In this document: positions 34,381 to 52,596 of the stretch, piece after piece
Numbering within the stretch: the stretch's first letter is position 1
Layout of the letters: every line of letters starts with the position of its first letter
Virus record (IMG/VR): IMGVR_UViG_3300014000_000001
Span: 168,791-232,790 of that record
Strand: one strand, 5' to 3'
Length of the DNA stretch: 64,000 bases
Source: a virus
Lineage: Duplodnaviria > Caudoviricetes
Notes under the pieces: generated by a model
The model's input: only the letters and a program-made list of their open reading frames with translations
What the model was told of the DNA's origin: nothing
Databases searched by the model: none
Made by a program: the position numbers and the translations under genes

Positions 34381-34473
34381 ATATTTACACCTGCGTATGT
34401 TATGAAATGGTCATCCTAATCATATCAAATGACATAAAGAGACCGCTATTATAATTTGCTCTCGGAGAGAATC

Positions 34474-36276
34474 ATGGCTAATATTGGCTACCCTTTAGAT
34501 GAACTGGGGACAAATCCAGATAACAAAGTTTTTGAAAGACGTGTTCTTACTGCAAAAGTGATTGATGGTCGTTGTTTCATGATTCCGAAAGTCACCCCAT
34601 TCTTTGCAGACGGTTTGAGTATCACAACAGGTACAACAACACTCATCCGTGACGTTGATTATCAATTAATCCTACATTCTCCAGAAATGGTTGAGCGTTT
34701 AGATAAAGATGTTTATGCTGGTATTTTGTTTCACAAACTTACCTTGAACCAGATTGTAGATTTGAACTACCAAACTCCAGGTGGGGATTTTAACCTACCA
34801 CTTGGACATACTGCTGAAAACCTTGCTCGTTTGATGCGTAACCCACTTTATACAACTTTCTCACAAATCACTGGAACGCCAGCAGGGTTGCCAACGTTTT
34901 CACATATTGAAGACTGGAGTGCGGTGCAAGACTTTGGCGATTTAGTTAATAAGATGAACCTTATTTATCTAGCTTTGCTGGCTAAAGGTACTGGAGGTTC
35001 AGGTGGTGATGGTTCAATATTCTTACAAGCATTACAAGATCACATCAATACAACAGGGCAAGCTCACACTAAAGAACAAGTGGGTTTAGGGAATTTACAA
35101 AACTATCCAGTAGCACAATACACGGATTTCAATGGACCAACTTATCCAATAAATCGATATGTGACACCACGAACAGTGATGTATGCAATCAACTTATTTA
35201 TTGGTGATGCCATTGATAAAGTGAAAACTCAAATCTCAGATCTTGAAGCACTATCACAACAAACCCAATCTGATTGGAATCAATTACAGTTAGAGTGGAA
35301 TGATTTAAAGACTACGCTTAATGCGGTAAGTCAGAATTATCAACAAATGGTTCAGCAAGTTCAAGGATATCAACAAAATCTCGTCCAGTTAAATCAAAAC
35401 TACGCAACGGTGATTCAGAACCAACAAACTTGGACACAAAAATTACAAGAAATCAACACCACGATGTTGGAGTATTCTCAAGACTACGTTGCGGTTATCC
35501 AAGCAAAAGATCAATTGATTATTGAATTTAACGCATTGAAACAAGCTTATGATAGTTACGCTCAGTCGATTACAAATCTAACCAATGGGTTATCTAGTGC
35601 AGTTGCTCGAATTACAGGGCTTGAAAAACATGCTCTTTATCCACAAACCAAAGTGATTACTCAAGGTTCTTACAACTTTAAAATCAAAGCAGGTGAGAAG
35701 TTTGAGATTACCTTAATCGGTGCAGGTGGTGGCGTCGGTGAATATATCACGGATCCCCCTTCTCTATCTGCGATCATGAATGGTGAACATGGCGGTTCTA
35801 CAAGCTTCTGGTGCTTACAATCAGACAATGGTGAATATACCCCAAATAACAAAGCGATTGCTGTGGCTGAAGGGGGTTTCGGCGGTTGCTCTAGCTATGG
35901 TAATGTTTCAGGTACTGTCTCTTCTTGGGGCATTGGTGGTCGTGGAGGTGCGTTTGAGGTACAACAATCCTTGATTGAACCTATTGAATTATCCAACGGT
36001 GAAGGTGGGTTAAAAGGTTATGGGGATTTCAATGCAACGATCTCTACTCAAAACCAAGGCTATGAATACTTCGGAACAAAGTGGGGTAAAGGAGCATTAA
36101 CAAATAATGCGGTTGGTCAAGGTGGTGAAGGTGCAATCGCTTCATTCCGCTACGAAAACAAAACCCAAAAAGAATTAGATTTTCAGGTTGTCGTTGGTGT
36201 ACGCGGACGTTCTTATAATCCGAGCAAAAACAATGCAACTGGCGGGTTAGCCATCATTAAGAAAATCACAACATAA
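34474..36276 (+). CDS. Tail fibre: phiKZ gp145/146-like anchor, coiled-coil shaft, Gly-rich C-terminal domain
   Basis: YPLDELGTNPDN..PFF anchor; HTKEQVGLGNLQNY motif; long heptad region; LIGAGGG/GGFGG/GQGGEG; probable ATG 34474. Confidence 0.75.
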   Translation: MANIGYPLDELGTNPDNKVFERRVLTAKVIDGRCFMIPKVTPFFADGLSITTGTTTLIRDVDYQLILHSPEMVERLDKDVYAGILFHKLTLNQIVDLNYQTPGGDFNLPLGHTAENLARLMRNPLYTTFSQITGTPAGLPTFSHIEDWSAVQDFGDLVNKMNLIYLALLAKGTGGSGGDGSIFLQALQDHINTTGQAHTKEQVGLGNLQNYPVAQYTDFNGPTYPINRYVTPRTVMYAINLFIGDAIDKVKTQISDLEALSQQTQSDWNQLQLEWNDLKTTLNAVSQNYQQMVQQVQGYQQNLVQLNQNYATVIQNQQTWTQKLQEINTTMLEYSQDYVAVIQAKDQLIIEFNALKQAYDSYAQSITNLTNGLSSAVARITGLEKHALYPQTKVITQGSYNFKIKAGEKFEITLIGAGGGVGEYITDPPSLSAIMNGEHGGSTSFWCLQSDNGEYTPNNKAIAVAEGGFGGCSSYGNVSGTVSSWGIGGRGGAFEVQQSLIEPIELSNGEGGLKGYGDFNATISTQNQGYEYFGTKWGKGALTNNAVGQGGEGAIASFRYENKTQKELDFQVVVGVRGRSYNPSKNNATGGLAIIKKITT

Positions 36277-36288
36277 TTGGAGTCTTCC

Positions 36289-39200
36289 ATGACTTTTGAT
36301 CCAAGACATGAAATTGGAGAGGATTACGAGGGAGTGAGTCCTCGCCACTCCCAAGTTAACGAAGTTCGGGAATTCACCAACGACTCAAACACACGTTTGT
36401 TCATGCCCGACTGTGGACCTTTCTATAAAAACTCTTTGAGTATTAAAAACATTGCCGATGGTAAACCACTTGTTCAGGATATTGATTACCGTTGTCTGAT
36501 AATGGATGACGTAGCTACTGAAAAATCAGGAAAAGAAGTATGTGGGTTTATCGAAGTACTTGATACTAACATTTCTTCTGTGATTTATGATTATCGGTTT
36601 GTTGGTGGTGGACATAGTACAGGTTACTTTGTTTTACGCCATCTTATGCAGATGTATCCAGATGGTATCAATGCAATCACTGAATGGTCAAACATCTTAA
36701 ACCTACCTACTGAATTTGATCCATCTTATCATACTCACCATGTACGTGAGATTTTTAATACTGAACAGATGTTAATTTGGTTAGAGCGTATTCGTTGTGG
36801 TGTGATTGAGTTCTATACCGAAAACTTTAAAGCTATTTACGATGCAGCTCAAACGCGTATTGATAACCTGTATAATAAGTTAGATACAGAATATGTTAAA
36901 ATAACCAATGAAATTTTAGCGATATTTAATAAGTTAAAAATTCAGGGTGAAGAATATATTCTTACCGATAATGCGACCAATCCAGCAAGTGAGCGTGGTT
37001 ACGGTAATTGGGTTCTCGTGAAGAACACCATTCTTTACGGTGCGGCAAATACCTTTGTGGTTGGTACAGGTACTTTGATGGCGTTGGGGTCAGAACAACT
37101 GATTCGTAACACCTATATTTGGAAGAACGTAGAAAACAAAACTCAACCAAGTTATAGCCTAACCGCTGATAAGCAAGCGATCAATGAAGGGGATTCAATC
37201 ACCTTTACGATCAAGGCTTTAAATACTGGAGTGTCCAGTATGGCGTTGGATTGGGAAATCGTTGGTGCGGATGCTCTAGATATTGTGGGTGGGTTAGCGA
37301 CAGGTAAAGTAACTCTAACAGGTTCAAATGCGTCAACAGTCACAGTTACTTTTGCAAAGGATCGAAGAACTGAAGGGGATAAAACCTATTACTTCAAGAT
37401 TCGTAACGTAGCTGACTTAGATGTTGCCTTTGTCGTGAACGATACATCGGTAACTCAAACTGTAGGATTGGAATTTCGCAAAACCAATATCGGCGCAGTG
37501 AGCTCAATTCTTGAAGATGATACGGTAACTCTTGCGATTAACACAGTAGGTTTTAATGGTAAGACACTTAATCTTACTTGGAGTGGTTTAACTAATGCTG
37601 ACTTCTCACAACCACCACCTACCAGCGTTGCAATCACGAGCAATACTACATTATTAGAGCTTAAAACTGTAGGTAACCTGAAAGCAGATGGCGATCGTAT
37701 TTTGAAAGTTGAAGCGCGTGATGCTGCTGATACTTCTTACCTTGCTGCAAGTGCTCAGGTGTTGGTTAAAGATACCTCATTGAGTTTAGAAGCCTCTATT
37801 TCATTTATTGTTAATGGACTACTTACCACAACAGTCAATGAAGGGAATAATTTTAATATCCGCATCAATACTAATGGTGGTGTTGGAAGAAAGCTACGTC
37901 TTGAATACTCGAGTAATAAACAATTAACAGAGTTCTCTGGGTTACTTGAACAGGTAACCATTCAAACTGGTAATGTGGTTGAAATTACAGCTCAGCATCA
38001 CGAAAACAATGCAACTGCTTTGGTTCAAGAATACTTACGGGTTAAAGTATTTGATGTTAACACAAACATTCAATTGGATGATAAAATCCTACAGTTTAAG
38101 GATACTTCACTTACACCAAATTACGTAAGTTATTTCTCTAGTGACGCCGCAGGTACGAATGAAATAACTGAGGTGAATGAGGGGTCTAAATTCTACTTTA
38201 TCATGAAGGTAGCTAATTGGGTTCCTGGGGCTGATCTCCCTACCAATGACTTTAACTACTTATTGAATGGGGTTACTCAAACTCTTCCTAATCTTCAAGC
38301 ACGAATTACAAATGGTTTTTACAACCGTTTAATTTTCGGAGGCACCAACAATAAAACAGGCGTAACTTGGAGTGGGGGTAATCAGTTAGCGATTGAATTT
38401 ACTGCGGTTGCCGATCAAAAGGTATCTGGGGATACGGATTTCTCAGTACAGGTAAAACCAATTGCTGTAGCGAATTGGGAAATTACTCGCAGTATCCGAA
38501 TCAACGATACATCAATAGCTGCTATCACAGCCCAGTGGTCATCAGCTCAAAATACATTAGTTCCAATCTCATCAATTGATGAGATGAATAGCGTTGGAGA
38601 AAATAAAACTGCTTGGTTATGGCTTGGAACAACTGGCGATTTACGTGGTTTAGGGGACTTGCAATTAGATGTCTCTGGTAATATCCAAGAAGATGACTTT
38701 GTAACTACTTTCCCAATCACGACTAAATTTACCGCAGTTAATCAAACCTTAAAAATCCCAGTCACCGTACGTGCAGATTTCACCACAGAAGGAACTGAGT
38801 CATTTACCTTAACTGCTTCGTATCAGACCAATAAAGGTTTACGTCGTAATTTTGCAAGTGCTTATCTTACTGTGAATGATAACTCAAATGAGCTACCATT
38901 GAGCGTAGCGCTTTCTGGGACGAATAATGATGTTGCAGGTTATAGCGAGTGGAAACCCATCACTGTAACAGTAACATCTGCAGTATTGGCTTACGCGACA
39001 AATGTAACAGCTTTGATCCAGTATGAAGATGGTTCTGATGCAACTGAGCGCTTTCAACAAATTGCATTAACTGGTAGCCATCCTGCAAACAGTTCCACTA
39101 TGAATCTAACTTTGATTCCAAAGGCGAATCGTAAAACTTATAGTAAGAATAACTTTAAGATTACGACCATCCGTAACCTTAGCGATGGAACACAAATTTC

Positions 39201-41802
39201 AACAGGAAACACTACACCATTTAAACTTAAGAATGACTCCACTCCACCTAGTGTGGTGATTGAGGCTTATAGTGATAGTGGGCGTACCACTCAAGCGACT
39301 AGCTTAGATGAGGGTAAAACCTATTATGGTCGAGTGAAAATCACAAACCCGAACCCTAAAACAGTATTAGCTGTAAACAACCCATTTGCTAGTGAAACGA
39401 CGAAAACGGGAACAGAGAAATTCGTTGGGCGTGATCAAAATCTGGTGATTCATAGCACCTCTAATAAAGTTGCTAAGGTTATTAATCCAGTCAATGATTA
39501 CACTGTGGATATTTATGATTTTAGTTTCAGTTTGGTAAATGATAGAACCACGAATTCCAATCAACGTTGGTTAAGGTTGGTGGCTTTAGCAGATACGGTG
39601 AACTCTTCATTGGCACTTAATGCAGTTTATCCAAACGATGATGTTGTGGGTAATGCGGGCATTTACAGAGCTTTACTTGATTTGAAGATCAATGATATTT
39701 CTAAGACAGCAACATTAGGTTTCCAATATTTAAACAGCGGCGGTTCTTCTGTTACAACCCTCAATGAGGGAGATGTAATGAAAGTAAGAATGAATTACAC
39801 CAATGCAACTGTTGGGGATCAATATTACCTAACATTAGATTCAACGTCTGCAGTTGATCTTACTCGGTTTGAGTATCACGATTTCGAAACTCGGAAAACA
39901 GCAACTGCAACAAGTGGTACCTTAGAGTGGAGTTTTAAATTTCTAAATAACCGTTTTACTAACGGGGATAAGATTCTTAAAATTGACTGTATGAATGAAA
40001 CAGGAAATATCAAATATGATCTTCCTGATTTTACGTTAGTCGACACCTCTAAAACACCATCTATTGATATTAGTTGGGGTTATGAAAGTGCTTTAATTAC
40101 CTCAGTAAAAGAAGTTACGAATAATAGCCCCTATACCATTACGGTGGTTGTTGATAATGCCACAAGTTCAGAACAAGTCACACTACAAAACATTGGTGGT
40201 AGACCATTAACTGATTTTGCATCACATGAGTTTAATACCTCAAAAGCAACAACGTTAGTAAGTGATAATCGTTATCAAGCTGTGTTCAATTTCAAAATGA
40301 AACCGAACATGAAAGATGATACAGTTAATACGATCAATGTACGTGCGACGACTTCCAGCTCACCAACTGTGACTAAGGATTCTAGTATTACTGTTTTAGA
40401 CACCTCTAGAACCAGAAGTATCACTAAAACTGAATGGAGAAATTCAGCCAGTCCAAACGGTGGAAGTATCATTACATCGGTAAACGAAGGCCAAGCTGCT
40501 TATCTTCATGTTTACACTACAGGTGGTGAGGACATTTACGGGTTAAAACTCACTAACAATGGCGGGCGTAGCGCTTCTCGTTTAGCGCAAGGAACGTACG
40601 ATAGTATTGCCAATCGAACAGGTTCAGATACTGCGGCAGTAGTCTGGTATTTCAGTCCTGCATTAGATGGTCTTACTAACAATGGAGATGAAACTCGTTT
40701 ACGGGTTAAGGTTGAAATCGCCGATGATTCCACTAAGAACATATCTGCAGAGTTACCTATCAATGATGTATCTGTGGATACCACTGGCGTGTTCTTAACT
40801 GGGAGTGGAGACACTGTTGACGAAGGTACTGCTTACAATGTTGCTGCTCGTTTAGACCGTATGGCGGTTGGGGTCACTTTTAGAATGCGTGCGACAACAG
40901 CTCATGGGATTGACTTATCAGGTTCTAGTGCGAACTGGAAGAGTATGGGAAGCGGAGTTTATCAATATGATTTCTCAACTTCAACTTATCAAGAAACTTT
41001 TAATGTGACTAATTTACCACTTAAAATTTCTGCAGATAGTAAAATTACTCCTAGTAATGAGTTGAGTATTTTATACGAATTAATTGATGTAACTAAGAAC
41101 CGTGTACTTGCAACCCGTACGGTTACGATTAATGATACTTCTAAACCAAACCCAGAGTATAGTATTAAATTAGTTGCAACAAATAATGCGAATGCCCCAG
41201 CTATCAGTAGTATGAAAGAGGGGGAGACTGCTTATATTGTGGTCACTACAAAATACTTCACAGGTCAGTTGAATATTGCTTATAGTGGGCAAAGTAGCAC
41301 TAATGCCAACACACCATTAGTACCACCAGATATGACTGCGACTCGTTATTTTGATATCACCGAGTATAATGGTCAATCTGTAGTCTTACCGTTTAGAACT
41401 CAAAAAGATGAAAGTTGGAACAATGGCGGTAACAGTACTATCGTGTTGAAGAATTCTAGTTTTAATTCTTTGGCTTCAGTTGGTTTCACTATTGTGGAAA
41501 ACTCAATCCCTGCTTCATTTGGGTCAGTTTATTGGGCATCAGACGCAGCAGGTGTAAATGTACTCTCTAACCAAACCTGCAGTGAAGGTGATACAGTTTA
41601 TTTGATTGCTAAAACTGTCGGAATGGAACCTGGAGTTCCAATCAATGTTAGTTGGGGTGGTTCAACCACTAATGCTGATGACTTCAGTGAGGGAAGTACC
41701 GCGTCACCTGTAGCACTTTATGTAACGAACTACAACGCTAATGACTTTACTGGCATGGTGGTGTACAAGATGACGCTTAAAAATGATCTACGTTTAGGTT
41801 AA
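36289..41802 (+). CDS. Giant fibre A: baseplate anchor plus 13 Calx-beta/Ig-like repeats, last one incomplete
   Basis: Repeats of the form NEG...D..TEG...I.DTS; ends KNDLRLG*; ATG 36289 with GGAG RBS. Confidence 0.8.
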   Translation: MTFDPRHEIGEDYEGVSPRHSQVNEVREFTNDSNTRLFMPDCGPFYKNSLSIKNIADGKPLVQDIDYRCLIMDDVATEKSGKEVCGFIEVLDTNISSVIYDYRFVGGGHSTGYFVLRHLMQMYPDGINAITEWSNILNLPTEFDPSYHTHHVREIFNTEQMLIWLERIRCGVIEFYTENFKAIYDAAQTRIDNLYNKLDTEYVKITNEILAIFNKLKIQGEEYILTDNATNPASERGYGNWVLVKNTILYGAANTFVVGTGTLMALGSEQLIRNTYIWKNVENKTQPSYSLTADKQAINEGDSITFTIKALNTGVSSMALDWEIVGADALDIVGGLATGKVTLTGSNASTVTVTFAKDRRTEGDKTYYFKIRNVADLDVAFVVNDTSVTQTVGLEFRKTNIGAVSSILEDDTVTLAINTVGFNGKTLNLTWSGLTNADFSQPPPTSVAITSNTTLLELKTVGNLKADGDRILKVEARDAADTSYLAASAQVLVKDTSLSLEASISFIVNGLLTTTVNEGNNFNIRINTNGGVGRKLRLEYSSNKQLTEFSGLLEQVTIQTGNVVEITAQHHENNATALVQEYLRVKVFDVNTNIQLDDKILQFKDTSLTPNYVSYFSSDAAGTNEITEVNEGSKFYFIMKVANWVPGADLPTNDFNYLLNGVTQTLPNLQARITNGFYNRLIFGGTNNKTGVTWSGGNQLAIEFTAVADQKVSGDTDFSVQVKPIAVANWEITRSIRINDTSIAAITAQWSSAQNTLVPISSIDEMNSVGENKTAWLWLGTTGDLRGLGDLQLDVSGNIQEDDFVTTFPITTKFTAVNQTLKIPVTVRADFTTEGTESFTLTASYQTNKGLRRNFASAYLTVNDNSNELPLSVALSGTNNDVAGYSEWKPITVTVTSAVLAYATNVTALIQYEDGSDATERFQQIALTGSHPANSSTMNLTLIPKANRKTYSKNNFKITTIRNLSDGTQISTGNTTPFKLKNDSTPPSVVIEAYSDSGRTTQATSLDEGKTYYGRVKITNPNPKTVLAVNNPFASETTKTGTEKFVGRDQNLVIHSTSNKVAKVINPVNDYTVDIYDFSFSLVNDRTTNSNQRWLRLVALADTVNSSLALNAVYPNDDVVGNAGIYRALLDLKINDISKTATLGFQYLNSGGSSVTTLNEGDVMKVRMNYTNATVGDQYYLTLDSTSAVDLTRFEYHDFETRKTATATSGTLEWSFKFLNNRFTNGDKILKIDCMNETGNIKYDLPDFTLVDTSKTPSIDISWGYESALITSVKEVTNNSPYTITVVVDNATSSEQVTLQNIGGRPLTDFASHEFNTSKATTLVSDNRYQAVFNFKMKPNMKDDTVNTINVRATTSSSPTVTKDSSITVLDTSRTRSITKTEWRNSASPNGGSIITSVNEGQAAYLHVYTTGGEDIYGLKLTNNGGRSASRLAQGTYDSIANRTGSDTAAVVWYFSPALDGLTNNGDETRLRVKVEIADDSTKNISAELPINDVSVDTTGVFLTGSGDTVDEGTAYNVAARLDRMAVGVTFRMRATTAHGIDLSGSSANWKSMGSGVYQYDFSTSTYQETFNVTNLPLKISADSKITPSNELSILYELIDVTKNRVLATRTVTINDTSKPNPEYSIKLVATNNANAPAISSMKEGETAYIVVTTKYFTGQLNIAYSGQSSTNANTPLVPPDMTATRYFDITEYNGQSVVLPFRTQKDESWNNGGNSTIVLKNSSFNSLASVGFTIVENSIPASFGSVYWASDAAGVNVLSNQTCSEGDTVYLIAKTVGMEPGVPINVSWGGSTTNADDFSEGSTASPVALYVTNYNANDFTGMVVYKMTLKNDLRLG

Positions 41803-41808
41803 ATAAAG

Positions 41809-41838
41809 AATCCGAAGGAGCCTAGGCTCCTTCGGATT
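41809..41838. repeat. CCTAGG-centred perfect palindrome (30 bp), followed by TATG at 41842
   Basis: aatccgaaggagcctaggctccttcggatt. Confidence 0.85.
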
Positions 41839-41876
41839 TCCTATGAACACATCTATTTACTAATAGAGATAAGACT

Positions 41877-44800
41877 ATGCTAAACGAAAATGCAATAGAG
41901 GATTTCCAAGGAACGGATATTTCTCACTTCATTCCAAACGAAGTACGTAAAAATATTAACCTTCAAATTGAACGCGTGATTATCCCTGCTTATGGCTCGT
42001 TTTTAGTACATACTTTAAAGCCTAGGCACATCAATACTAAGTTACCTTTAACTCGCGGTAAAGACTATGAGATTTTATCTATTGATGAAAGAGCAACATT
42101 AAAAGCAGGCCGTGAAGTTGCACATGGTTTTGTGCTAATAAATGAAAACATCCCAGGGGTTGAATACGATTATCACTTTATCGGTGGTTTATATTCTAAT
42201 GGTAAGTACTTGATGGATGAAGTGAAGAAACGTTATCCAAATGGTATTACACCTAACTTCGTTTTTGATTATATTAAAGGTAAACCAGAAACCTATCCAG
42301 CAAAAGACCATATACATTCTGCTCATGACACCTATGGTTATGATGGCGTTAATAAACAGCTTGATCGGGTAATCCACGGAATCGAACGTGGGGCGGATAC
42401 TAACTTAGCAAATATCTATATCCGTGCATCAGATAAACTCGCTGAGATGGAAACCACAACCACGAACGATATTAATACAATTCGTCAGAAACTTACAGAT
42501 GCATTTGAAGCACTGAGAGTACAACAAGGTGAGTACATCTTTACTGATTCTTTGGATAATCCATCGATTCTTCGAGGGTATGGAACATGGGTGCGTGTCA
42601 CCAATACTATCTTGAAAGGCGCACAATCTGATATTATCGTGGGTGATGGTACATTGCTCTTAAAAGGGAATGAGCAACCTTTACGTAACACTTATATCTG
42701 GATGAATAAAGATAGCATTGTTGCGCCAACATATACCCTATCTATCCAAGGTGTAACTAAGACCAACAATAAATGGCCTGTGAATGAAAACACAACTTTT
42801 AAAGTTTTAATTCAAACCACAGGGATTGCAAAGAACACAAAACTTGCTTGGTTAATCACTGGTATCGATGATCAATACATTGATGCAAGTGTATCTAAGA
42901 TGACTGGAGAGTTTGTTATCAATGATCTAGGTCAAGCAACGGTTGATGTGCGATTACTTGATAACCCTAATGAGCTTGGCAATCGTGAATGTGTGTTCAT
43001 GTTGGAACATATCGCAAATACTAGCTTAAACATCTTGGTTCAAGATACCATTCGTGCTAAATGGGTGGAGATGTTCTTTAGCCATGATAACTTAGGTAAA
43101 GTTAAAGCTGTGCGCATCAATGAGGGTGAGATCGTTTATCTGCAATTGAAGTTCTACGGTTATAGCGTGGGTGAGGACATTTATTTAGATTGGTCACAAA
43201 GTACCGTATTAAGTAATGAGTTTGAAATTGTACCCCCGTCTCTTTTATCTGCAACCGCATCAACTATGACAGTGGCGTTAAAGGTAAAAGCAAATCAATT
43301 AACTGATGGCGAGCGATCTTTAATTGTTTATTCTAAGAATGCCCCTTTAGATGCTGTGAGTAGTACGGATTCCGTGGCTTATGTTTTTGTTCAGGATAGT
43401 TCAGTTTCAACCAATGTGAATATTGATTTTAAATCCACAACTGGAACCATTCTTACTAGCCTTAGTGAGGGCGATACATTTAGTATTAGCCTAACCACCT
43501 TACTCCCTAAAGATAGCGTGTTGGAATTGATTTATGAAACCAGTAAATCCTTAGATGAATTCACTGGGTTACAATCAACAGTAACAATTGATGTTAACGG
43601 TAAAGCCTCCTTTAATGTCACAAATGCAGTAGACTTCTTAACCAATGAAGGGGTGCAGCTGTTCAAAGTAACTGCCCGTTATCAAGGACAAGATGTATCG
43701 ACAAATAGTATTATTATTAAAGATACATCACAAACCCCGAAGTACACTATGACTATCACCGCACCAAATAGCACAACTCCAATTGCTAAAGTCAATGAAG
43801 GGGATGATTTCTGGGTGCGTTTAGCTGTTGCGGGTTGGGTAAATACTCCGTACCCTCCAACGATTGTATTTAACTATGGGTTAAATGATGATTATTCAGC
43901 CAATTCAAAAGTGCGTGATCGGGTAAACTCATCATTTCATGATCGACTACCTTATTCCAATGCCGCAGGAAGTTATAATGATGTTAGTTGGGTAAATGGT
44001 GCAGAGCTTATCTTAAAGATGACTGCAATTGCTGATCGTAAATTCAGTGGAAATGCAAAATTCAATGTAAGTATGAAGCAAAGTAATATGGATCAATTCC
44101 TATTACAATCATCTGTACAGATCATGGATACTTCTGTTTTAGATATTGCAACTGCTTGGTCAAGCTCAGGAGTGATTCTAAATCCAATTACCCAAGTCAA
44201 TGAAATGCAAACAGATGGTAGTAACAATACATTCTATTTGTGGATGGATGTTGATGGGGATGGGTCTTTATTTAATGACATCACTATCAACGCTACAGGT
44301 AGTGCAACTGCAAGCGACTTCGTTACAGTATTCCCATCTGTGGTAAACTTTGATACAGGTAAATCCAGAAAGATATTTGCTATTACTTTATTGTCTGACT
44401 TCTTAAATGAAGGGAATGAATCATTAACATTATATGGTACTTATGTTGATGTAAACGGTAAAGTTACAGAAGTGTTCAGAACTAGCATTACGATCATTGA
44501 TAACTCAATTCTAGTACCGCTTGACGTTAAACTCTCGACCTCGAATACCGACCCTGATGCAGCACCATCAGGTGGTAAGTTTTCTGAGTATGGCGTGATC
44601 TACGCGCATGTAACCTTTCCAGCTTATGTGATGAATACCAACATTGAATGGGATGTATGGACGCTAACAGGAACTGCAGCTAACGGGCAGGTTACTCCAG
44701 TGAACGGTGTGGTGAACGCTCCAACAGGAAGCTCAGGTGTGGTGATTCAGATCAATCCTATTGCCGATCGTTTACAAGATGGGGAATTTAAAGGTCTGAT

Positions 44801-47426
44801 TAAAGCTCGACGTCGTTTGGTTTCAGGGAATAAGATTATCGGGATGAATGAGAATATTCCATTTACCCTTTTGGATGACTCTGTACCAATGACAATTGTC
44901 ACTAAAACCTATAAGGATGCTGCTCGAACCCAAGAGAGTACAATCTTTAATGAGGGTGATATCGTTTACGGTCGCACAGTGGTAAGTAACCCAAGCGGGG
45001 ACTATTTTCTCACCAACAATATCACTACAGGTAACAACGACACCACAGATGCAACCTATACCTATTTAGGTGCAACTGGAACTGTAGTCACTTATGCTGA
45101 TCAGCAGAAAGTGAAAAAGGTATTTAGCGCAGTTGCGGGTGTGGTGAGTTACACGGATGATTTTGCAATCACTCTTAGACGTAACCGAACCACTCAAGCT
45201 AAACCACAAGTAATTAAGGTAGGTGGTATTGTTTGGAAGAATACGGGTAATTGGGTTGTTGGAAACACTTACCCATCCGTGTGGGATGATACCCAACTTA
45301 ACTCAGTGAAAACAATCACCGTAAATGACTCTTCCAAAACCCCTAGCTATGTTGTAAACGCAGGCTTAACTGAAAACTCAGCGCGAGCTGATAACTTTGA
45401 TGAAGGGTTAGCTTTTGTTGTTTCTTTGAACATTAGTGATGGTGAAATTGGAGATGTTTATACTCTAACAAAGACAGGTAACTTTGAACAAGAGCGGCTA
45501 GAGGTGAGCCAATATGGTGTTGAACAAGTAACCAACGCCTATAACCAACGCTTAAGTTGGAATTTCAAATCGTATATTGGTCGTAACACCAATACTTGGA
45601 CAACTTTAGGTTTTGATGTTTGGAATAAAACCACAGGCCTTAAGATTGGACATATTGATGTCAACATCAATGATATTTACAAAACTCCAACCTTACAAAT
45701 GCGTTGGATGATTGGTACAACTGATTACGCTGTGGATATCGATGAGGGTGATTCTCGCTATGAAGTTGTAGTTACTGGTGATCAATATTTGTTAGGTGAT
45801 GAAGCTATTAAGTTAAGCATTGTTTCTGGACGCCCACTTGCAAAATATGGCAACTCCGCTAATTTTGATAAATGGTATCCAGTAAATATTGTAAATGGTG
45901 TCCCTACAGTTCGTATCCCTGTTTATCCGTTGGCAGATAAATACACCAACCCGGCAGCGGAATTGATCGCAAACCTAAAGGCTGTTACTTCGGTTACCAA
46001 TGCTTCAGTTACTTTATCTCGTGCAATCAATGATAATTCCCAAACCCGCGCATACACTCTAGTGGGGTGGTATTATCCAGGTGGGACAACTCCAATCTCT
46101 TCAGTAAATGAAGGTGATACGGTTGAGATGCGGGTTAAGGTCACGGGAGGTACTGATATTGTTCCAGTTAAACTCACTAACAACGGTGGTAGAACCGAAT
46201 ACATCACCCACGAGTACGGTGTGACTAAATCGAGAACTTCTGATAATGCTGAATTGACTTGGACGTTCACTATCGGGAAGGATTTTAGAGATGCTACAGG
46301 TGATCAGATGCGACTACGAGTTAATCTTGAGATCACCGATACTTCGAGTACAACACGAACTGAAACCCTACCAATTAATAACACCAGCGTTGCGTCAGCG
46401 GGTGCGTGTAATTTCTACGCTAGTGGTACATCTACAGTAATTACTTCAATAAAAGAAGGAAGTAATTTTGATGCAAACTTCCAACTGAGTAAGTGGAACA
46501 CTGGTAGTAATTATCGCTGTTTAACTAAGTCCTCAAGAAACGGAACAGAGTGGAAAGTAGATTCAACCAGTATAGGTAGTAATTGGACAACCTCAGGTTC
46601 AAATAAGGTAATTAAGTTCCCATTATCTGTTAATGGAGATTCAACCACAAATACAGGTGGGGAACTTTATATCACTTCTGAACTTTGGGATATGGATGCG
46701 GGTCGTTTATTAGCGAGTAGTTCACTCACTATTATCGATATATCTCGTGAACCTTTAAGCACTAACGATATGCGAATTGCAGCAGTAGGTGGAACTGCAC
46801 AGATTTCCCAAATTAATGAAGGGAATACCGTAAGGCTCTATTTCTTACCAAGTTGTTTTGCGGGCACGGATTGGTCTGACAGTAAGCAATTTTATTGGTG
46901 GTTAGGTAATCCAGGCGGTGGAGCTAATTCCAAGTTCGCCGATGGCTATATCCCTCAATCAAGTTTAGCGGGTGATGGATCGTATAGCGTTAATGTTCCA
47001 ATTCCAGCAAATGAAAGTACCGATGGTGATCGTACAGTTAGAATTGAACTCTATGAAATGTTTGGTTCTGGTAACGGTACTTACTTTAGAGGTAACTCTG
47101 CTAATTGTGTAATTAAAGATACATCTATTACACCATCAATTGATCAGGTCTACTGGGCGTGGGACTCTGCTGGAGGTAATCCAATTTCGGTCAACGGATC
47201 AGCCAATGAAGGTGACACAGTTTATCTGATTGTACAAGGTAAAGGTCTAGCTAACAATGGTGCAGATGTGACGGTAAGTTTGAATTGGGACGGCACAGCA
47301 TCTGCAGCAGATTTTGATACAACTCTCCCATCCTCTGTTACATGTAAACAATATACCACTGGTAGCACAACTTACTATCTTGGTTCCGTTCAGGTGAAAA
47401 TCAAAGCAGATGGAGTTGAAGGTTAA
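41877..47426 (+). CDS. Giant fibre B, full-length paralogue of fibre A; last Calx-beta/Ig-like repeat incomplete
   Basis: Collinear with fibre A (e.g. NP...RGYG.WV.V.NTIL.G...SEQ/NEQ..RNTYIW); ends KIKADGVEG*. Confidence 0.8.
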   Translation: MLNENAIEDFQGTDISHFIPNEVRKNINLQIERVIIPAYGSFLVHTLKPRHINTKLPLTRGKDYEILSIDERATLKAGREVAHGFVLINENIPGVEYDYHFIGGLYSNGKYLMDEVKKRYPNGITPNFVFDYIKGKPETYPAKDHIHSAHDTYGYDGVNKQLDRVIHGIERGADTNLANIYIRASDKLAEMETTTTNDINTIRQKLTDAFEALRVQQGEYIFTDSLDNPSILRGYGTWVRVTNTILKGAQSDIIVGDGTLLLKGNEQPLRNTYIWMNKDSIVAPTYTLSIQGVTKTNNKWPVNENTTFKVLIQTTGIAKNTKLAWLITGIDDQYIDASVSKMTGEFVINDLGQATVDVRLLDNPNELGNRECVFMLEHIANTSLNILVQDTIRAKWVEMFFSHDNLGKVKAVRINEGEIVYLQLKFYGYSVGEDIYLDWSQSTVLSNEFEIVPPSLLSATASTMTVALKVKANQLTDGERSLIVYSKNAPLDAVSSTDSVAYVFVQDSSVSTNVNIDFKSTTGTILTSLSEGDTFSISLTTLLPKDSVLELIYETSKSLDEFTGLQSTVTIDVNGKASFNVTNAVDFLTNEGVQLFKVTARYQGQDVSTNSIIIKDTSQTPKYTMTITAPNSTTPIAKVNEGDDFWVRLAVAGWVNTPYPPTIVFNYGLNDDYSANSKVRDRVNSSFHDRLPYSNAAGSYNDVSWVNGAELILKMTAIADRKFSGNAKFNVSMKQSNMDQFLLQSSVQIMDTSVLDIATAWSSSGVILNPITQVNEMQTDGSNNTFYLWMDVDGDGSLFNDITINATGSATASDFVTVFPSVVNFDTGKSRKIFAITLLSDFLNEGNESLTLYGTYVDVNGKVTEVFRTSITIIDNSILVPLDVKLSTSNTDPDAAPSGGKFSEYGVIYAHVTFPAYVMNTNIEWDVWTLTGTAANGQVTPVNGVVNAPTGSSGVVIQINPIADRLQDGEFKGLIKARRRLVSGNKIIGMNENIPFTLLDDSVPMTIVTKTYKDAARTQESTIFNEGDIVYGRTVVSNPSGDYFLTNNITTGNNDTTDATYTYLGATGTVVTYADQQKVKKVFSAVAGVVSYTDDFAITLRRNRTTQAKPQVIKVGGIVWKNTGNWVVGNTYPSVWDDTQLNSVKTITVNDSSKTPSYVVNAGLTENSARADNFDEGLAFVVSLNISDGEIGDVYTLTKTGNFEQERLEVSQYGVEQVTNAYNQRLSWNFKSYIGRNTNTWTTLGFDVWNKTTGLKIGHIDVNINDIYKTPTLQMRWMIGTTDYAVDIDEGDSRYEVVVTGDQYLLGDEAIKLSIVSGRPLAKYGNSANFDKWYPVNIVNGVPTVRIPVYPLADKYTNPAAELIANLKAVTSVTNASVTLSRAINDNSQTRAYTLVGWYYPGGTTPISSVNEGDTVEMRVKVTGGTDIVPVKLTNNGGRTEYITHEYGVTKSRTSDNAELTWTFTIGKDFRDATGDQMRLRVNLEITDTSSTTRTETLPINNTSVASAGACNFYASGTSTVITSIKEGSNFDANFQLSKWNTGSNYRCLTKSSRNGTEWKVDSTSIGSNWTTSGSNKVIKFPLSVNGDSTTNTGGELYITSELWDMDAGRLLASSSLTIIDISREPLSTNDMRIAAVGGTAQISQINEGNTVRLYFLPSCFAGTDWSDSKQFYWWLGNPGGGANSKFADGYIPQSSLAGDGSYSVNVPIPANESTDGDRTVRIELYEMFGSGNGTYFRGNSANCVIKDTSITPSIDQVYWAWDSAGGNPISVNGSANEGDTVYLIVQGKGLANNGADVTVSLNWDGTASAADFDTTLPSSVTCKQYTTGSTTYYLGSVQVKIKADGVEG

Positions 47427-47429
47427 TAA

Positions 47430-47449
47430 AAGGTGGGGAAACCCACCTT
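47430..47449 (+). terminator. Short GAAA-loop hairpin
   Basis: aaggtggg-gaaa-cccacctt. Confidence 0.55.
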
Positions 47450-47468
47450 CTAATTTAGGAATCTAAAC

Positions 47469-48965
47469 ATGGCAATTAATGAAACAATTACTGCGACAGC
47501 TTCTTTAACTACTTCTGGTGGGAAGAATTTAAGTTTACGTGGAAATACCTTAACCATTAACGATACATCAAATAACGATATAGTTATTGATATTACTAAA
47601 GACTGGAAAACCTCGGCAGCATCAAGTGCTTATGGTGGTTTATACATTAAACCTACATTAAATTTATCAAACGAAGTAAAAGCTCGTTTCGGTGGGTTTG
47701 AATCAGGTAAGCGTTATATTTTTAGAATCGCGAGTGATGTGGTGCTTTTAGCAAATAGCACATCAGCTCAAGCGATAATGGATGGAGATTGGCCATCCAC
47801 GATTGAAAACCCAAGAGTGGAAAACTATGGCTTGATTATGGGGCGTGGTGGTAATAATGGTGTGGGGGGTGGTTTGAATGGACGTAATAGTTATTACACG
47901 CCTAAAATTAAACCAACGGTTGGAGGTAGTGCGATCGGTAGTATTAGCGCCCCTATATTAGTAAACAATTATGGTGGGATATGCTCGGGTGGTGGTGGTG
48001 CTGGGTCAAACACTGAGTATTCTCAATATTCTAAGATCAGTGGTAGTAATCAGGATTATTACTCCGTAATGATAGCTGCAATTGCATCAGGTGCAGGTGC
48101 TCCTTTTGGGGTCACAACGCGTGATATTAACGTCCATAATGATATTGTGATAATGAATCAGGCTATGCCTTGGTTCAGTGGGCGTTCAGCAACATTTAAT
48201 AGTAATGAGTTAGTTACTCCCTACAATGCTAACCTTAACTACGTTAAATATGTAACTATTCGAGTAAACTACCAGGATAACACACTAACGTTGACGGATA
48301 CCAAAATCAACAACACTCGAAGTTTTAATGTTCAATCTTACCCACAGTGGTGGGCTGATCGCAGAAACGCGGGTAATGGTCCAGAAATCGGCTATCTTTT
48401 CAACTATAAACAAAATAACACCAAGAATTATCGACCACCGTATAATGGGGACCCAGCAGATCAAGGTGGTTATTTGGATAGCGTTACTCCTGCAGGGTTG
48501 TTTAGGGGAGGTCGTGGAGGTAATCCAGAAGTGAATTTAATGTTTGACCTATATCTTATGCGTTTTATACCGTGTATGACTCCAGCACAGTCACAAGTTT
48601 GGCGTGATCGTTGGCGTGGCGCTAATGGTGGGGATGTTGGCAAGTCAGGTAATGCTGGAATCAATACCCCTCTTTGGACGATGAACTATCAATCTGCCAA
48701 TAGAGCCAATTATCGTTATTTAGAGGGAGCTCAAGGAACCATGTGGGGTGTGGGCGCTACCGCAGATAACTACTATTATGGAACCACTGATGGTGGGGCT
48801 GCGGCAGGCCCATTGACTATTGGTAACGTCACTATTAATAATCTAAATGGGGGTGTTACTGGAGGTGACGCTGTACTGGACAAATACGACCCTAACGGGA
48901 CGTTTGATGTTAACGCTCGAGCCGCTGCAAATAATGTAACTTTAGAATTTCCATGCATCTATTAA
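47469..48965 (+). CDS. T-even gp38-like polyglycine adhesin with an N-terminal Calx-beta F-G strand segment
   Basis: GRGGNNG, NNYGGICSGGGGAG, GAGAPFG, GGRGG, GGDVG and GGAAAG in gp38-like order; AGGA RBS. Confidence 0.75.
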   Translation: MAINETITATASLTTSGGKNLSLRGNTLTINDTSNNDIVIDITKDWKTSAASSAYGGLYIKPTLNLSNEVKARFGGFESGKRYIFRIASDVVLLANSTSAQAIMDGDWPSTIENPRVENYGLIMGRGGNNGVGGGLNGRNSYYTPKIKPTVGGSAIGSISAPILVNNYGGICSGGGGAGSNTEYSQYSKISGSNQDYYSVMIAAIASGAGAPFGVTTRDINVHNDIVIMNQAMPWFSGRSATFNSNELVTPYNANLNYVKYVTIRVNYQDNTLTLTDTKINNTRSFNVQSYPQWWADRRNAGNGPEIGYLFNYKQNNTKNYRPPYNGDPADQGGYLDSVTPAGLFRGGRGGNPEVNLMFDLYLMRFIPCMTPAQSQVWRDRWRGANGGDVGKSGNAGINTPLWTMNYQSANRANYRYLEGAQGTMWGVGATADNYYYGTTDGGAAAGPLTIGNVTINNLNGGVTGGDAVLDKYDPNGTFDVNARAAANNVTLEFPCIY

Positions 48966-49032: not shown

Positions 49033-52000
49033 ATGGCTTTAATATTCCCGTTTGACTCAACATTAAAAGGCTATGTCGAAGAAGTAGAAATTAATATCTC
49101 TAATCTCGAATATCCAATTTTCACCTTCCCTAAAGGTTCGTTCTTTGTATCTGAACTTTACGGTATTGTTAAAGGCACTAGAACTATCGTTCGCCCTGGA
49201 CTTGATTTTAAAGTACTTAGTTTAAATGAAACCATTCAATTTAATGATAGCGATACTAACTTAAATACCACTTTAAAACAAAACTATGTTCGTAACGGCA
49301 TTCTTTGGTGTGGCAGGCAAGACGTTGGTACGATTGTTTGGAAGGTACCTTATTGTGGCGGTGAAGACAGTAATAAACCTGCTCAATACAGTAACTATAT
49401 TGCCACACTTTATAACCAAGCTCGCACGCTAGGCACAATTAACCTATATGGAATTAAACAACAAGCTTGGGGTGGATTTATTCATCCTGAAAATAAACAA
49501 ATTGTATCGGGACGTGATATCTATAATAAGTATTTTGACTACTATGAGGACATCAATAACAACGGCGGTTTGGGTTGGGGTAAAGTTCATCTTTCAATGA
49601 TGGCATTAGCCGAGGTTGTTGCAAATGGTGGAGATCCAATGGAGATTCAAGCCTTTTACGACTGGCTTAGAAAATATGAAATTGAATACACCAAATACAA
49701 AGATAGCATTGTTGCTAATTTAAACCAACAAATTGAAAACCTTGATCAAAAGCGGGTAGGGTTTGAGCAGTTTGTTTATTCTAATGGGAATTACAATCAT
49801 TACAGTAAGCACAATTATAAAGAATTGAATAATGTAATACTTCGTGGTTTAGATCCTGACGAAACTGGGTTTCAATTAAACCCAATTAAAACCAACAGAA
49901 ATAATGTAGGTCATTATGCCTTAGGTGTATGGGGTAATGACTTTGATCTAAAAGCAACTCGATTATCACAACGTAAATCCATTGCAATAGATACGAGTCC
50001 GTTTAAAATATCAATCACCTATGTAAAACAAACTACCTCAGGTAGTAATCCACGTAACATTCAATATGGGGTTAAATTTGAAAATATAGAAAAAGCATCG
50101 AGCGGAGTCTATACCGCTTATATTATCTCTAAACGTTTAGGGGTGATTGCAACGTTGGATGTAAGTAGATATATCACGGGATTAAGTGGAAGCTCTACGA
50201 TTGGGACCTCAGCACAATACCCTGGAGGTAGTACTGATTATGCTGATGATATTATTTTCATTTTTGTAGCCAATGAAAATATGCAGACCGATTTCATGGC
50301 TGAGGTGGGTCGTTTGCGTTACATTAGCTATACTCGTAACTATGGTTACACGCTTAGCGTTGACACTCGTGGGTTGATTATTACTAATGGGGAGTTGATT
50401 TCTAAAAACCCTGAATTAGACTTAACGCAAGATAATGCAATTGGAACCAGTAGTGTTGAAGTAACGATCACTCGCCAGTTCTCTGATTACGTTGAGACAA
50501 ACTATTTAGCTGCGGTGGATGTAAAAGATATTGGTAGTGCAATCAACAATACAGTGAACGCAATGGCGACAATCAATTGGGCTGCAGGTGAAACCAAAAA
50601 GATTGTTAAGGTGAGTAATAGTGACGGGTTATTTACACGTGACACCACAGTTGCAATCCAACTCCATCGCACTAATCAAGTGAATGTTCCAATCGCAACA
50701 AGACAAATCCTCGCTACGGTACTTGTGGGTCAGCGTAAGAGTACTACAAATAACGTAGCTTACATTGAACTCTTAGATAGTGAAGAAAATGGTAATCCAG
50801 TTACTTTACCAAAAGACGGTACTCGTTACTATTTATCGGTGCAATACGCTAAGAACTTTAACTTTCACCGAGTAAACCCTACACTGAAAGTGGCTAACAT
50901 AGTGGGTAACCCTGGTAACGTTTTGATGGGTACTCCAAAATTCATCGATGTGGGTCATGTTATCTACCCGATTCAGTTTTTAGATTTCAAACCAACCGCA
51001 GGATTAAATTACTTTGAAACTTCGCTTGAATTGGTTGACCCAAATAGCTCTTTTAGCACCAATCGCATTAACTTATATATTGCTCACCAATCGGTAAATT
51101 TTGCAGGAGCTGGTACTTTTAATCTGGTTGAGTTTCTTACAGTGGAAGCAATAGGCGGAGTGATCACTACGTTTAGATATCGCCCAACTAATCTAGGGGT
51201 GATTCCAAACCTAACTGCGTTTAACTTGTCTTTATCGAATAATGCTACAGTGGTTAATCCTCCTATCTACCTGAATGATCAATTGGAATTTAGTTTTTTC
51301 ACCCCAGATGCATCGATAGGTAAGCCTGTTAATATTGAGGTTAGTTATGTTAATGCTTCAGGGCAAAGTGTAACCGTAGTCAATATGGTGAACACTTATA
51401 ACTTTAGAGGAGCTAGATTAGATTTTATTTCTCCTTCAAATATGGCGATTATTAACCGCCCACGACTAGGGGAGCCATTTAAGATCCGTTATCGCGGTGA
51501 GTTTAACGTAACCCCAACTAAAGTATCGGTAAGTATTGATACTACTATGAGTGATCGCAATAATGTTAATTGGAGCGGGGATGCACCTGATCTACAAAAC
51601 CCAACATTGAGTGGGGTTGTTGTGGCGAGTGATAAAACTGCTTGGGTGAATGCTGGAACACAAATTAGTGTAGCTGAAGTTATCAACACGACAACATATC
51701 AAGATTACGCTAAGGTTTATTTTAAAGTGGTGAGTGAATTCCCAGATGGTACAACTAATGTTAGCTTGGTAATGAAAGAATTCTTAATTGAATCCTTCGA
51801 TATTAAATTCTATCGATTAGGAAGCAACGAAGAAATCACCGATGGTGTGTTTGTAAGTGGTACATCAGCAATTATGTCTGTTACTTCCAAAACTATTGAT
51901 CTAAGCTCGATAAATTATGTCACAATTTATGGAAGTGGTTTTGTGTATAAAAACCTAATAGTAGATGCAACGAACAACACTGTTAAAGCGGTGTTCGACA

Positions 52001-52095
52001 TCACTACGGTATCTGATGGGCCTTTTAGTCCAAAGATTTCAATTGGAGGCTATGAGGTTTATGAGCGTAAACAATTCAGAATTGTCGCAGCTTGA
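49033..52095 (+). CDS. Fibre C: diverged anchor plus Ig-like domains (1020 aa)
   Basis: FPFD..GSFF..PGLDFKVL anchor related to fibres A/B; EQFVYS..ELNNVILRG segment; INWAAGETKKIV Calx-beta-like strand. Confidence 0.7.
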   Translation: MALIFPFDSTLKGYVEEVEINISNLEYPIFTFPKGSFFVSELYGIVKGTRTIVRPGLDFKVLSLNETIQFNDSDTNLNTTLKQNYVRNGILWCGRQDVGTIVWKVPYCGGEDSNKPAQYSNYIATLYNQARTLGTINLYGIKQQAWGGFIHPENKQIVSGRDIYNKYFDYYEDINNNGGLGWGKVHLSMMALAEVVANGGDPMEIQAFYDWLRKYEIEYTKYKDSIVANLNQQIENLDQKRVGFEQFVYSNGNYNHYSKHNYKELNNVILRGLDPDETGFQLNPIKTNRNNVGHYALGVWGNDFDLKATRLSQRKSIAIDTSPFKISITYVKQTTSGSNPRNIQYGVKFENIEKASSGVYTAYIISKRLGVIATLDVSRYITGLSGSSTIGTSAQYPGGSTDYADDIIFIFVANENMQTDFMAEVGRLRYISYTRNYGYTLSVDTRGLIITNGELISKNPELDLTQDNAIGTSSVEVTITRQFSDYVETNYLAAVDVKDIGSAINNTVNAMATINWAAGETKKIVKVSNSDGLFTRDTTVAIQLHRTNQVNVPIATRQILATVLVGQRKSTTNNVAYIELLDSEENGNPVTLPKDGTRYYLSVQYAKNFNFHRVNPTLKVANIVGNPGNVLMGTPKFIDVGHVIYPIQFLDFKPTAGLNYFETSLELVDPNSSFSTNRINLYIAHQSVNFAGAGTFNLVEFLTVEAIGGVITTFRYRPTNLGVIPNLTAFNLSLSNNATVVNPPIYLNDQLEFSFFTPDASIGKPVNIEVSYVNASGQSVTVVNMVNTYNFRGARLDFISPSNMAIINRPRLGEPFKIRYRGEFNVTPTKVSVSIDTTMSDRNNVNWSGDAPDLQNPTLSGVVVASDKTAWVNAGTQISVAEVINTTTYQDYAKVYFKVVSEFPDGTTNVSLVMKEFLIESFDIKFYRLGSNEEITDGVFVSGTSAIMSVTSKTIDLSSINYVTIYGSGFVYKNLIVDATNNTVKAVFDITTVSDGPFSPKISIGGYEVYERKQFRIVAA

Positions 52096-52107: not shown

Positions 52108-52596
52108 ATGTTTAATATAAAATTTAGCCGAGAAGGGGCAATGGTGTACTCAAAACAAGCCAGTCAGATTCTCGGTAAGAATTATTGGTATTTACGAGAT
52201 GATGTGAAGGTGAGGATTGAGTTTAAATCCCTAGTTTGGAGTTTCATTATTCCTCAAGGTTATCTAACTGATGGAGCTACCGTACCTCGTCTCGCTTGGA
52301 GTATCGTTCCACTTTGGGATGAATGTACCAATGCTGTATTGTTGCATGATTATTTATGCAATTACTCAGTAACGTCAACAGACGGGGAACTCTATCCTTT
52401 AAACCGTAAAGATATTGATCTGTTATTTTTACGGACAATGGAGTTCTATGGAGTACATTGGTTTAAACGTAAATTAATGTATGGGTGTGTGCGTCTTTGG
52501 GCGAAACTCTTTAAATATGAAAAACCAATGATCTCAACCAAAAAATATGAAATGGAAGAGATGATTCGTGAAAACATTCGATTGGGGTATTACTAA
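52108..52596 (+). CDS. DUF1353 family protein
   Basis: TDGATVPR...AVLLHDYLC...RKDIDLLF...KRKLMY.CVR. Confidence 0.8.
   Translation: MFNIKFSREGAMVYSKQASQILGKNYWYLRDDVKVRIEFKSLVWSFIIPQGYLTDGATVPRLAWSIVPLWDECTNAVLLHDYLCNYSVTSTDGELYPLNRKDIDLLFLRTMEFYGVHWFKRKLMYGCVRLWAKLFKYEKPMISTKKYEMEEMIRENIRLGYY

Follow-up and report, generated by a model that had tools for sequence, protein, structure and literature searches.

The stretch of DNA analysed here (64,000 nucleotides, hereafter the window) is the last 64 kb of IMGVR_UViG_3300014000_000001, a 232,790-bp linear IMG/VR virus record of a jumbo phage. The record is a metagenomic contig, ~86% complete, with a G+C content of roughly 38%. On its + strand the window carries a tail-fibre module consisting of a 600-amino-acid (aa) gene, fibre A, fibre B, tip B, fibre C, a DUF1353 gene and tip 2. 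Our subject is the junction between the giant fibre B and the adhesin tip B, where the last immunoglobulin (Ig)-like domain of the fibre is divided between two genes, and the similar end of fibre A. The features that bear on it most directly are the following.

36289-41802, + strand: fibre A, 1837 aa from the ATG at 36289 (the open reading frame, ORF, opens at a TTG at 36277)
41506-41799, + strand: truncated last domain of fibre A, 98 aa (IPASFG...KNDLRLG), without the last two strands
41877-47426, + strand: fibre B, 1849 aa, a paralogue of fibre A
47127-47423, + strand: truncated last domain of fibre B (the 'socket'), 99 aa (ITPSID...KADGVEG), six predicted strands
47427-47468, + strand: spacer between fibre B and tip B, 42 nucleotides (nt), with TAA at 47427 and 47451, a hairpin at 47430-47449 and an AGGA ribosome-binding site (RBS) at 47457-47460
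47469-47570, + strand: tip B leader (the 'plug'), 34 aa (MAINET...TINDTS), the last two strands of the fibre B terminal domain
47469-48965, + strand: tip B, 498 aa, the leader followed by a GP38-type glycine-rich adhesin body

Fibre A has an N-terminal attachment domain followed by about 12 Ig-like domains of ~120 aa. The first 200 aa of fibres A and B match the virion structural protein phrog_2163 (fibre A residues 27-204, E-value (E) 1.7e-30). Gene calls for fibre A in related phages begin 12 nt past the upstream gene. When the fibres are cut into units at the recurrent xxD[TN]S motif, the internal domains span 110-135 aa and end with this motif, compared with terminal pieces of 98 aa (A) and 99 aa (B). 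Both terminal domains fall some 30 residues short, stopping at ...D..[E/L]G: the C-terminus of fibre A reads ...YKMTLKNDLRLG (stop codon 41800-41802) and that of fibre B ...VQVKIKADGVEG (stop codon 47424-47426). A hidden Markov model (HMM) of the domain, built from 15 internal units and 119 positions long, covers most internal units from about position 2-14 to 119, and the terminal units of fibres A and B over positions 10-58 and 2-82, respectively. That both fibres end without the last two strands had been claimed in a preliminary description of this DNA, all of whose quoted coordinates and sequences proved correct on re-checking.

The same description placed the missing strands at the start of the gene after fibre B, and they are indeed found there. 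The tip B ORF opens at 47469 with MAINETITATASLTTSGGKNLSLRGNTLTINDTS (nt 47469-47570). A second HMM, of the last two strands, was built from segments of internal units only and is hence independent of the tips. The 232.8-kb genome has 427 ORFs of 60 aa or more, and when the 45 N-terminal residues of each were searched with this model, tip B came first (13.2 bits, E 0.0018, residues 7-34); the runner-up had an E of 0.048 and was not an N-terminal match. Since tip B was ranked first at this E-value by an independent model, the leader match exceeds chance. We also aligned a read-through translation of 47109-47603, with TAA translated as Q, to 26 complete domains using MAFFT. The fibre end ...VQVKIKADGVEG pairs with ...IPVTVRADFT and the leader AINETITATASL...TLTINDTS with TEGTESFTLTASY...YLTVNDNS, the spacer appearing as a single gap, and the 34-residue leader aligns column for column with the two missing strands. 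Given this register of the two ORFs, the end of fibre B and the start of tip B together make up a single repeat unit, interrupted in the loop that precedes its last two strands.

The two genes are translated from separate signals. In the window the spacer is in frame, with TAA codons at 47424, 47427 and 47451, and no start codon occurs between the final in-frame TAA and the tip B ATG. The hairpin at 47430-47449 has an 8-bp stem and a GAAA loop (minimum free energy -16.8 kcal/mol, z -2.95). In the window and its relatives the fibre B-tip spacers measure 42, 42, 67, 62, 64 and 59 nt and so fall in all three frames; all of them hold a strong hairpin, and 6-9 nt upstream of the ATG lies an AGGA/GAGG-type RBS. 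This combination excludes a sequencing frameshift or a pseudogene and agrees with the preliminary description, which had pointed to the AGGA site of tip B, the three TAA stops and the hairpin.

With the C-terminal 470 aa of fibre B as query, 5.8 billion proteins yielded eight further full-length relatives and one near-identical copy (26-96% identity). The fibre B orthologues P0007-P0013 are 31-96% identical across these 470 aa. Orthologues from eight assemblies, which are independent and come from different runs, stop at the same alignment residue, with the endings KADGVEG, KKDRSEG, KNDQIEG, RADLADG, LEDLAEG, KNDNIEG and VEDNAEG. At the break point D101 and G105 are invariant, and the invariant acidic residues comprise E34/D36, D68 and D101 of the socket and E5 and D32 of the plug. 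The order of a fibre gene followed by a GP38-type tip gene is identical in the related loci L002, L004, L005, L007 and L009. Relatives had been expected to share the break point, and the fibre B orthologues of the eight assemblies do so down to 31% identity. As to fused relatives without a conserved split, which the preliminary description had set against its own reading, fused fibres do exist (L003, P0014, P0023), but the split is kept throughout the clade to the same 31%. We regard it as practically certain that the split is real, conserved and under selection.

In tblastn searches of 50,697 deposited phage genomes, fibre B is matched over its N-terminal 200 aa only, at ~25% identity, by virion proteins of phiKZ-like Pseudomonas, Serratia and Klebsiella jumbo phages; tip B gave no match by megablast or tblastn against these records, nor did the rest of the fibres and tips. 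No relatives emerged from IMG/VR scans that used the tip, the tail of the fibre or the aligned leaders as query, or from a single metagenome scan for the leader, and a search of the 5.8-billion protein set with the leader alone returned close orthologues only.

Scanning 1.84 billion representatives in full with HMMER, we recovered no more than 19 relatives of tip B, five of which are full-length orthologues sharing the leader. The leader is the most conserved segment in six of seven tip comparisons. It is 94% identical in P0018, where the rest of the tip is 18-42% identical, and 50-62% identical in more distant tips, where the rest falls to 9-30%; residues 35-80, directly behind the leader, are 28-91% identical. 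The exception is the L007 tip, whose body (52-75% identical) is closer to tip B than its leader (50%), a pattern suggestive of recombination directly after the leader. The bodies that follow the leader differ in kind. P0028 (272 aa), encoded directly after a 1874-aa fibre ending in VEDNAEG, joins the leader to a far shorter glycine-rich body, and P0035 (287 aa) joins it to DUF285 repeats (E 8.8e-55), with an upstream hairpin and RBS like those of the window. The expectation of a conserved leader before varied C-terminal bodies is therefore met with three forms: long GP38-type, the short form of P0028 and DUF285.

A contiguous form is seen in two proteins of other phage lineages, P0023 (678 aa) and P0027 (770 aa), which have Gp10_C and tail-collar fibre N-termini. 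Both carry an uncut Ig-like/PKD-like domain, that of P0023 ending in ...EINDTS, followed by the start of a GP38 module (VITIDKNW...YYLKPT). P0023 thus reads Gp10_C, complete domain, GP38 module, and is collinear with tip B from residue 29 onward. Elsewhere, then, GP38 modules follow an uncut domain, and it is to the end of this domain that the leader is homologous.

The assignment of tip B to the GP38 type rests on several observations. Our own Pfam hmmscan of tip B (P0003) gave no GP38 match, and the precomputed annotation lists PF05268.19. Tip orthologues at 35-40% identity pass the Pfam GP38 cut-off of 25 bits (L004 tip, 34.0 bits; P0018, 32.5 bits), phmmer connects tip B to GP38-bearing fibres (P0023, E 1.3e-8), and tip B lies directly downstream of a distal fibre gene, 42 nt after fibre B. 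Its body (47571-48965) is about twice the size of a T2-type gp38, its glycine motifs being set apart by long inserts. A 9.5-kb contig of another phage (L010:1603-8607) contains two leader-bearing genes. The gene at 1603 starts MPINETLKFDVSW...LVDKS and encodes 504 aa, with GP38 precomputed on the record and no match in our own hmmscan; the gene at 6541 starts MPKRNETLSFTTSF...IVDTS and encodes 688 aa. Three genes between this pair share another N-terminus, M..STFYA[RK][IL]TP..., and a DUF1353 gene lies upstream. This locus may be a cassette of alternative tips.

For structure prediction we gave AlphaFold2 the read-through construct (P0016, TAA as Q) together with an alignment of paralogous domains. 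The last fibre domain and the leader fold into one complete β-sandwich, as had been anticipated, with a mean predicted local distance difference test score (pLDDT) of 84.1 and a predicted template modelling score of 0.75. The fibre part supplies strands 10-17, 31-33, 37-45, 54-62, 76-84 and 87-98, and the leader strands 125-134 and 140-151 (pLDDT 86-93), joined by a linker with a pLDDT of about 57. A two-chain ESMFold2 prediction, using 105 aa of the fibre B tail (8-row alignment) and 48 aa of the tip leader (10 rows), passed its controls, the best of three scoring 0.01, and was itself graded only 'weak support' with a score of 0.59. Of 80 solved complexes 58 pass the mark used, as do 2 of 110 mismatched pairs; with a score of 0.60 or less, just seven of the 80, and both of these mismatches, pass it. 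Agreement of contacts between runs was at least 87%, and the pLDDT of the partner at least 64.

The preliminary description had called the repeats Calx-beta domains, a label that the sequences do not support. No Pfam Calx-beta (PF03160) match was obtained at E<=0.1 in fibres A and B and tip 2, or at E<=10 in 27 isolated domains; weak Pfam matches of the domains are to Ig_3, ig, Big_7 and FlgD_ig. A search of PDB sequences with the domain profile gave nothing significant and no Calx-beta chain, and Foldseek against the PDB gave weak generic Ig-like matches only (best E 5e-4). Using VIA-align against 48,161 PDB representatives, complete Ig-like sandwiches align over residues 6-153 of the model, i.e. 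over both halves, led by BtaeB-NTD (Z 10.2), intimin D00-D0 (Z 8.9) and a large adhesion protein repeat (Z 8.5). The calcium-binding domains (CBDs) of NCX1 and CALX give Z 7.6-7.9 (NCX1 CBD12 7.9, CALX-CBD1 7.7, CBD1 E454K 7.7, NCX1 7.6) with the highest identities, 17-23% over 106-113 aligned residues, and are tied in Z-score with many other Ig-like domains. The likeness to Calx-beta (NCX1 CBD1/CBD2) comes from these middling Z-scores and from two features of the phage domains, an acidic D...E..E motif within the loop leading to the last strands and a final D; these domains are also β-sandwiches of similar size. In view of the higher scores of BtaeB-NTD and intimin and the missing Pfam match, the domain is a generic Ig-like sandwich, its membership of Calx-beta being unsupported by sequence.

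The remaining features of the module are as follows.

34456-36276, + strand: conserved 600-aa gene, upstream of fibre A
41809-41838, no strand assigned: A/B intergenic hairpin, a 13-bp palindrome followed by CCTATGA, its sequence conserved in all relatives
49033-52095, + strand: fibre C, 1020 aa, a different protein type
52108-52596, + strand: DUF1353 / tail assembly chaperone-like gene (PF07087, E 4.8e-19; phrog_1158 tail assembly chaperone, E 3.4e-31)
52596-53552, + strand: tip 2, 318 aa, with a 33-aa leader, one complete Ig-like domain and an unrelated C-terminal domain
52596-52694, + strand: tip 2 leader, 33 aa (MADELVQAKLSF...LIVKDK)

The A/B hairpin (ATCCnAAGGAGCCTAGGCTCCTTnGGAT, a 12-13-bp palindrome) and the following TTTCCTATGA are near base-for-base conserved in all relatives (L002-L007), although the flanking genes are only 30-60% identical, and the hairpin recurs between fibre B and the tip in L007. 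Judged by its sequence, the hairpin plus TATG looks like a phage-specific terminator combined with a late-promoter-like element. A sigma-70 promoter/terminator scan of the module was uninformative (40 promoter-like sites compared with 38.7 expected). The stop codon of the DUF1353 gene and the ATG of tip 2 share one base (52596; 52593-52599), an overlap that suggests translational coupling of the chaperone-like gene and tip 2.

Tip 2 starts with MADELVQAKLSFTMPIRGTTVSVNAPPLIVKDK. Its counterpart in L012, which belongs to the L007 phage, starts with MGDELIKPTLSYTWPIKKNTITTTAPTLTVKDTS and continues into an unrelated glycine-rich body; the leader is conserved in the window, L002 and L012 ahead of unrelated bodies, and the L012 version ends in TVKDTS. 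The internal Ig-like domain of tip 2 is complete (HMM positions 15-119, E 5e-31). Against an HMM of the tip B leader, the tip 2 N-terminus ranks second of the 427 and matches in register (7.7 bits, E 0.064). A leader pattern, made after the fact, occurs at ORF starts genome-wide only in tip B and tip 2. Fibre A ends in K.D..[LA]G in the window, L002, L006 and L007, and tip 2 co-occurs with this end. In the 25.5-kb locus L004, where fibre A ends in ...KVRTS, no tip 2 was found after the DUF1353 gene or by a scan with the leader pattern. The distal end of fibre C also differs in L004, so that the co-occurrence cannot tell fibre A from fibre C as the partner. L004 belongs to a sub-clade with a shorter fibre A of 1684-1702 aa (L004:4818-9926, L005:4906-9960, L009:1-2258).

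We propose the following mechanism. The terminal Ig-like domain of the giant fibre would be a split domain, of which the fibre chain supplies the first six strands before stopping in the loop after the sixth, at ...D..EG. The separately translated receptor-binding tip would bring the last two strands in its 34-residue N-terminal leader, which closes with DTS. As the virion is assembled, this leader is predicted to insert into the open sandwich and complete the fold in trans, a donor-strand-like complementation that would fix one tip at the distal end of one fibre chain by a non-covalent bond. The plug being short and separable from the body, the receptor-binding bodies (long GP38-type, short GP38-type, DUF285 repeats) could be swapped by recombination just behind it. 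The split, its conservation, the independent translation signals, the homology of the leader and the modularity of the bodies are established by comparison of sequences, whereas the insertion, the stoichiometry and the non-covalent nature of the bond are predictions. On balance we consider it probable that the leader completes the last fibre domain in trans and thereby attaches exchangeable tips. Two socket/plug pairs are likely: fibre B with the GP38-type tip (M-A-I-N-E-T...) and fibre A with the tip at 52596 (M-A-D-E-L...). The idea that tips dock on both fibres stands well supported for fibre B and its neighbour; for fibre A and the 52596 tip it is weaker, though plausible, and we infer this pairing. 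Whether the evidence from the two clades points to a second orthogonal pair of fibre A and tip 2 we judge to be evenly balanced. We take an equally even view of the wider generalisation, in which a portable 34-residue plug could dock any receptor-binding module on a single-chain Ig-repeat fibre, with two orthogonal pairs (NET and DEL leaders) per virion and docking perhaps aided by a Ca2+-type acidic cluster contributed by both chains. An isopeptide lock was considered and dropped, as the socket has no conserved Lys.

Several observations weigh against this proposal. Both structure predictions are models. The AlphaFold2 alignment held complete paralogous domains and was biased toward the completed fold, so the result indicates compatibility and is not an independent proof. 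Halves of a split domain can pass a complex prediction through their likeness to solved Ig folds, and the ESMFold2 pass lies in the 'weak' band. An AlphaFold2 model of tip 2 from four sequences was poor (pLDDT 51.5; leader 43-54), making the placement of its leader uninformative, and against the internal-domain HMM the tip 2 leader shows the pattern without reaching significance. In L004, L005 and L009 fibre A ends after a similar partial domain (HMM positions 6-72), at about the sixth strand and without D..EG (...KVRTS, ...RLKAR and ...LKLKG, respectively), and a leader-bearing partner for it was not found in the DNA examined. Finally, there are the fused relatives. In L003 (L003:1329-14549; P0010 and the preceding gene) both giant fibres, of 2198 and 2182 aa, are fused to a C-terminal tip, which has six GG motifs at Kelch-blade-like spacing (LYHGG, IMYGGR, LFYGGK, YFIGGN, VTYGGR, IFHGGA). 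This tip begins at the equivalent of the break point (...KYNILEG-LTDVTKTGLIHGG...), where other phages have a stop codon. P0014 has a Pro-rich linker after the sixth strand. Neither the L003 fibres nor P0014 show a recognisable copy of the last two strands. From these sequences, the six-strand piece may be stable or capped differently, and the strands may not be strictly required; other residues of the fused tips may fill their place in cis. The loop at the break point is, by the same comparison, a module boundary for covalent and split junctions alike.

How do other explanations compare? That a fibre-tip gene was simply broken in one contig, by an assembly or sequencing artefact or as a pseudogene, has the metagenomic nature of the window as its sole recommendation; with the split recurring in divergent sequence in eight independent assemblies it is refuted by the relatives, and we give it virtually no weight. 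Readthrough, frameshifting or hopping over the hairpin could yield a fraction of fused fibre-tip chains, and would suit the window and L002, where the ORFs share a frame 42 nt apart and a hairpin comes right after the stop. Three TAA stops separate the ORFs, however, the spacers of 67, 62, 64 and 59 nt in other relatives put them in differing frames, every tip gene has an RBS at normal spacing, and no matching take-off/landing codons were seen. Recoding of this kind is very unlikely on such sequences, and we would be most surprised to find it; gene 60-like hopping across the in-frame 42-nt spacer was dropped, since the spacers are out of frame in relatives. A more substantial alternative is that a fibre-GP38 fusion existed in an ancestor and was cut within a domain by chance; the leader would then be a leftover and the tip would be held mainly by other surfaces or through a chaperone, with the conserved N-domain of the GP38 module (DIVIDITKDW...YIKPT) as a candidate surface. 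The contiguous arrangement in other lineages (P0023, P0027), the fair conservation of residues 35-80 and the L003 fibres without recognisable last strands are all in keeping with such a relic. It does not explain why the leader is the most conserved segment outside the L007 comparison, why it is kept before bodies without the GP38 N-domain (the DUF285 repeats of P0035) or why the break point is invariant across deep divergence, and six strands alone would leave the core of the sandwich partly open. We consider a relic improbable.

A further alternative leaves the fibre B junction as proposed and concerns the partner of tip 2, which could belong to fibre C or be a free decoration, with fibre A capped otherwise or uncapped. 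The gene order (fibre C, DUF1353, tip 2) favours this, as do the non-significant match of the tip 2 leader to the internal-domain HMM and the altered distal end of fibre C in L004, where tip 2 was not found. Yet fibre C gave no match to the Ig-like repeat HMM built from the fibre domains and so has no repeat of this type to complete, whereas fibre A is cut in the same loop as fibre B. The register of the tip 2 leader with that of tip B, second of 427, and the canonical TVKDTS of the L012 version also speak for a plug. We think this other pairing rather unlikely, though it deserves more weight than a relic.

Completion of an incomplete domain by a neighbouring protein is well known from bacteria. 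In chaperone-usher pili (Fim, Pap, Caf1, Saf) an incomplete Ig-like subunit is completed by the N-terminal extension of the next protein, so that the chain grows head to tail, and an adhesin sits at the tip. The phage fibre domain is likewise incomplete at its C-terminal edge, and its completion by the N-terminus of the next protein is what we predict here. Unlike a pilin, it misses two strands rather than one and is unrelated by sequence; the 1850-aa multi-domain fibre has one such junction, at its end, and no polymer results; and the system is cytoplasmic, the module having no PapD-like chaperone, usher, signal peptides or secretion. The only chaperone-like gene in the module is the DUF1353 / phrog_1158 gene. 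As we read it, the phage system works like donor-strand complementation and is not a member of that family.

Known junctions between phage fibres and receptor-binding proteins are trimeric adaptor domains or caps. In T2 and S16, gp38 caps the trimeric gp37 through its own N-terminal attachment domain. The phage described here resembles the gp37-gp38 system (PF05268) in having a separate gene for a small glycine-rich, receptor-determining GP38-type adhesin directly downstream of the distal fibre. It differs in that the fibre is a string of Ig-like domains, the last of which has two of its strands at the N-terminus of the adhesin; a 1:1 junction is implied. Strand insertion into a neighbouring subunit is shared with TasA/BsaA-type fibres, which are bacterial and secreted, and some of them isopeptide-locked; the phage structure, in contrast, is a virion fibre with no conserved Lys in the socket. 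For BsaA biofilm fibres, an N-terminal segment of one protein is described as inserting into the β-sheet of its neighbour (PMC11580942). Our full-text literature search, whose scope did not extend to most subscription journals, found no account of donor-strand or strand complementation for phage fibres or receptor-binding proteins. What we describe is a known principle in a new setting, the attachment of phage fibre tips.

The way in which receptor-binding proteins are fixed on fibres governs how easily host range is exchanged in nature. If our reading is true, the link would be 1:1, probably very stable, and would need only a short transferable tag, which would explain the mosaic tips found behind a constant leader. 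Donor-strand complementation, hitherto a hallmark of bacterial pili and matrix fibres, would then reach virions, and these phages would have a counterpart of pilus complementation that amounts to a new principle of host-range modularity.

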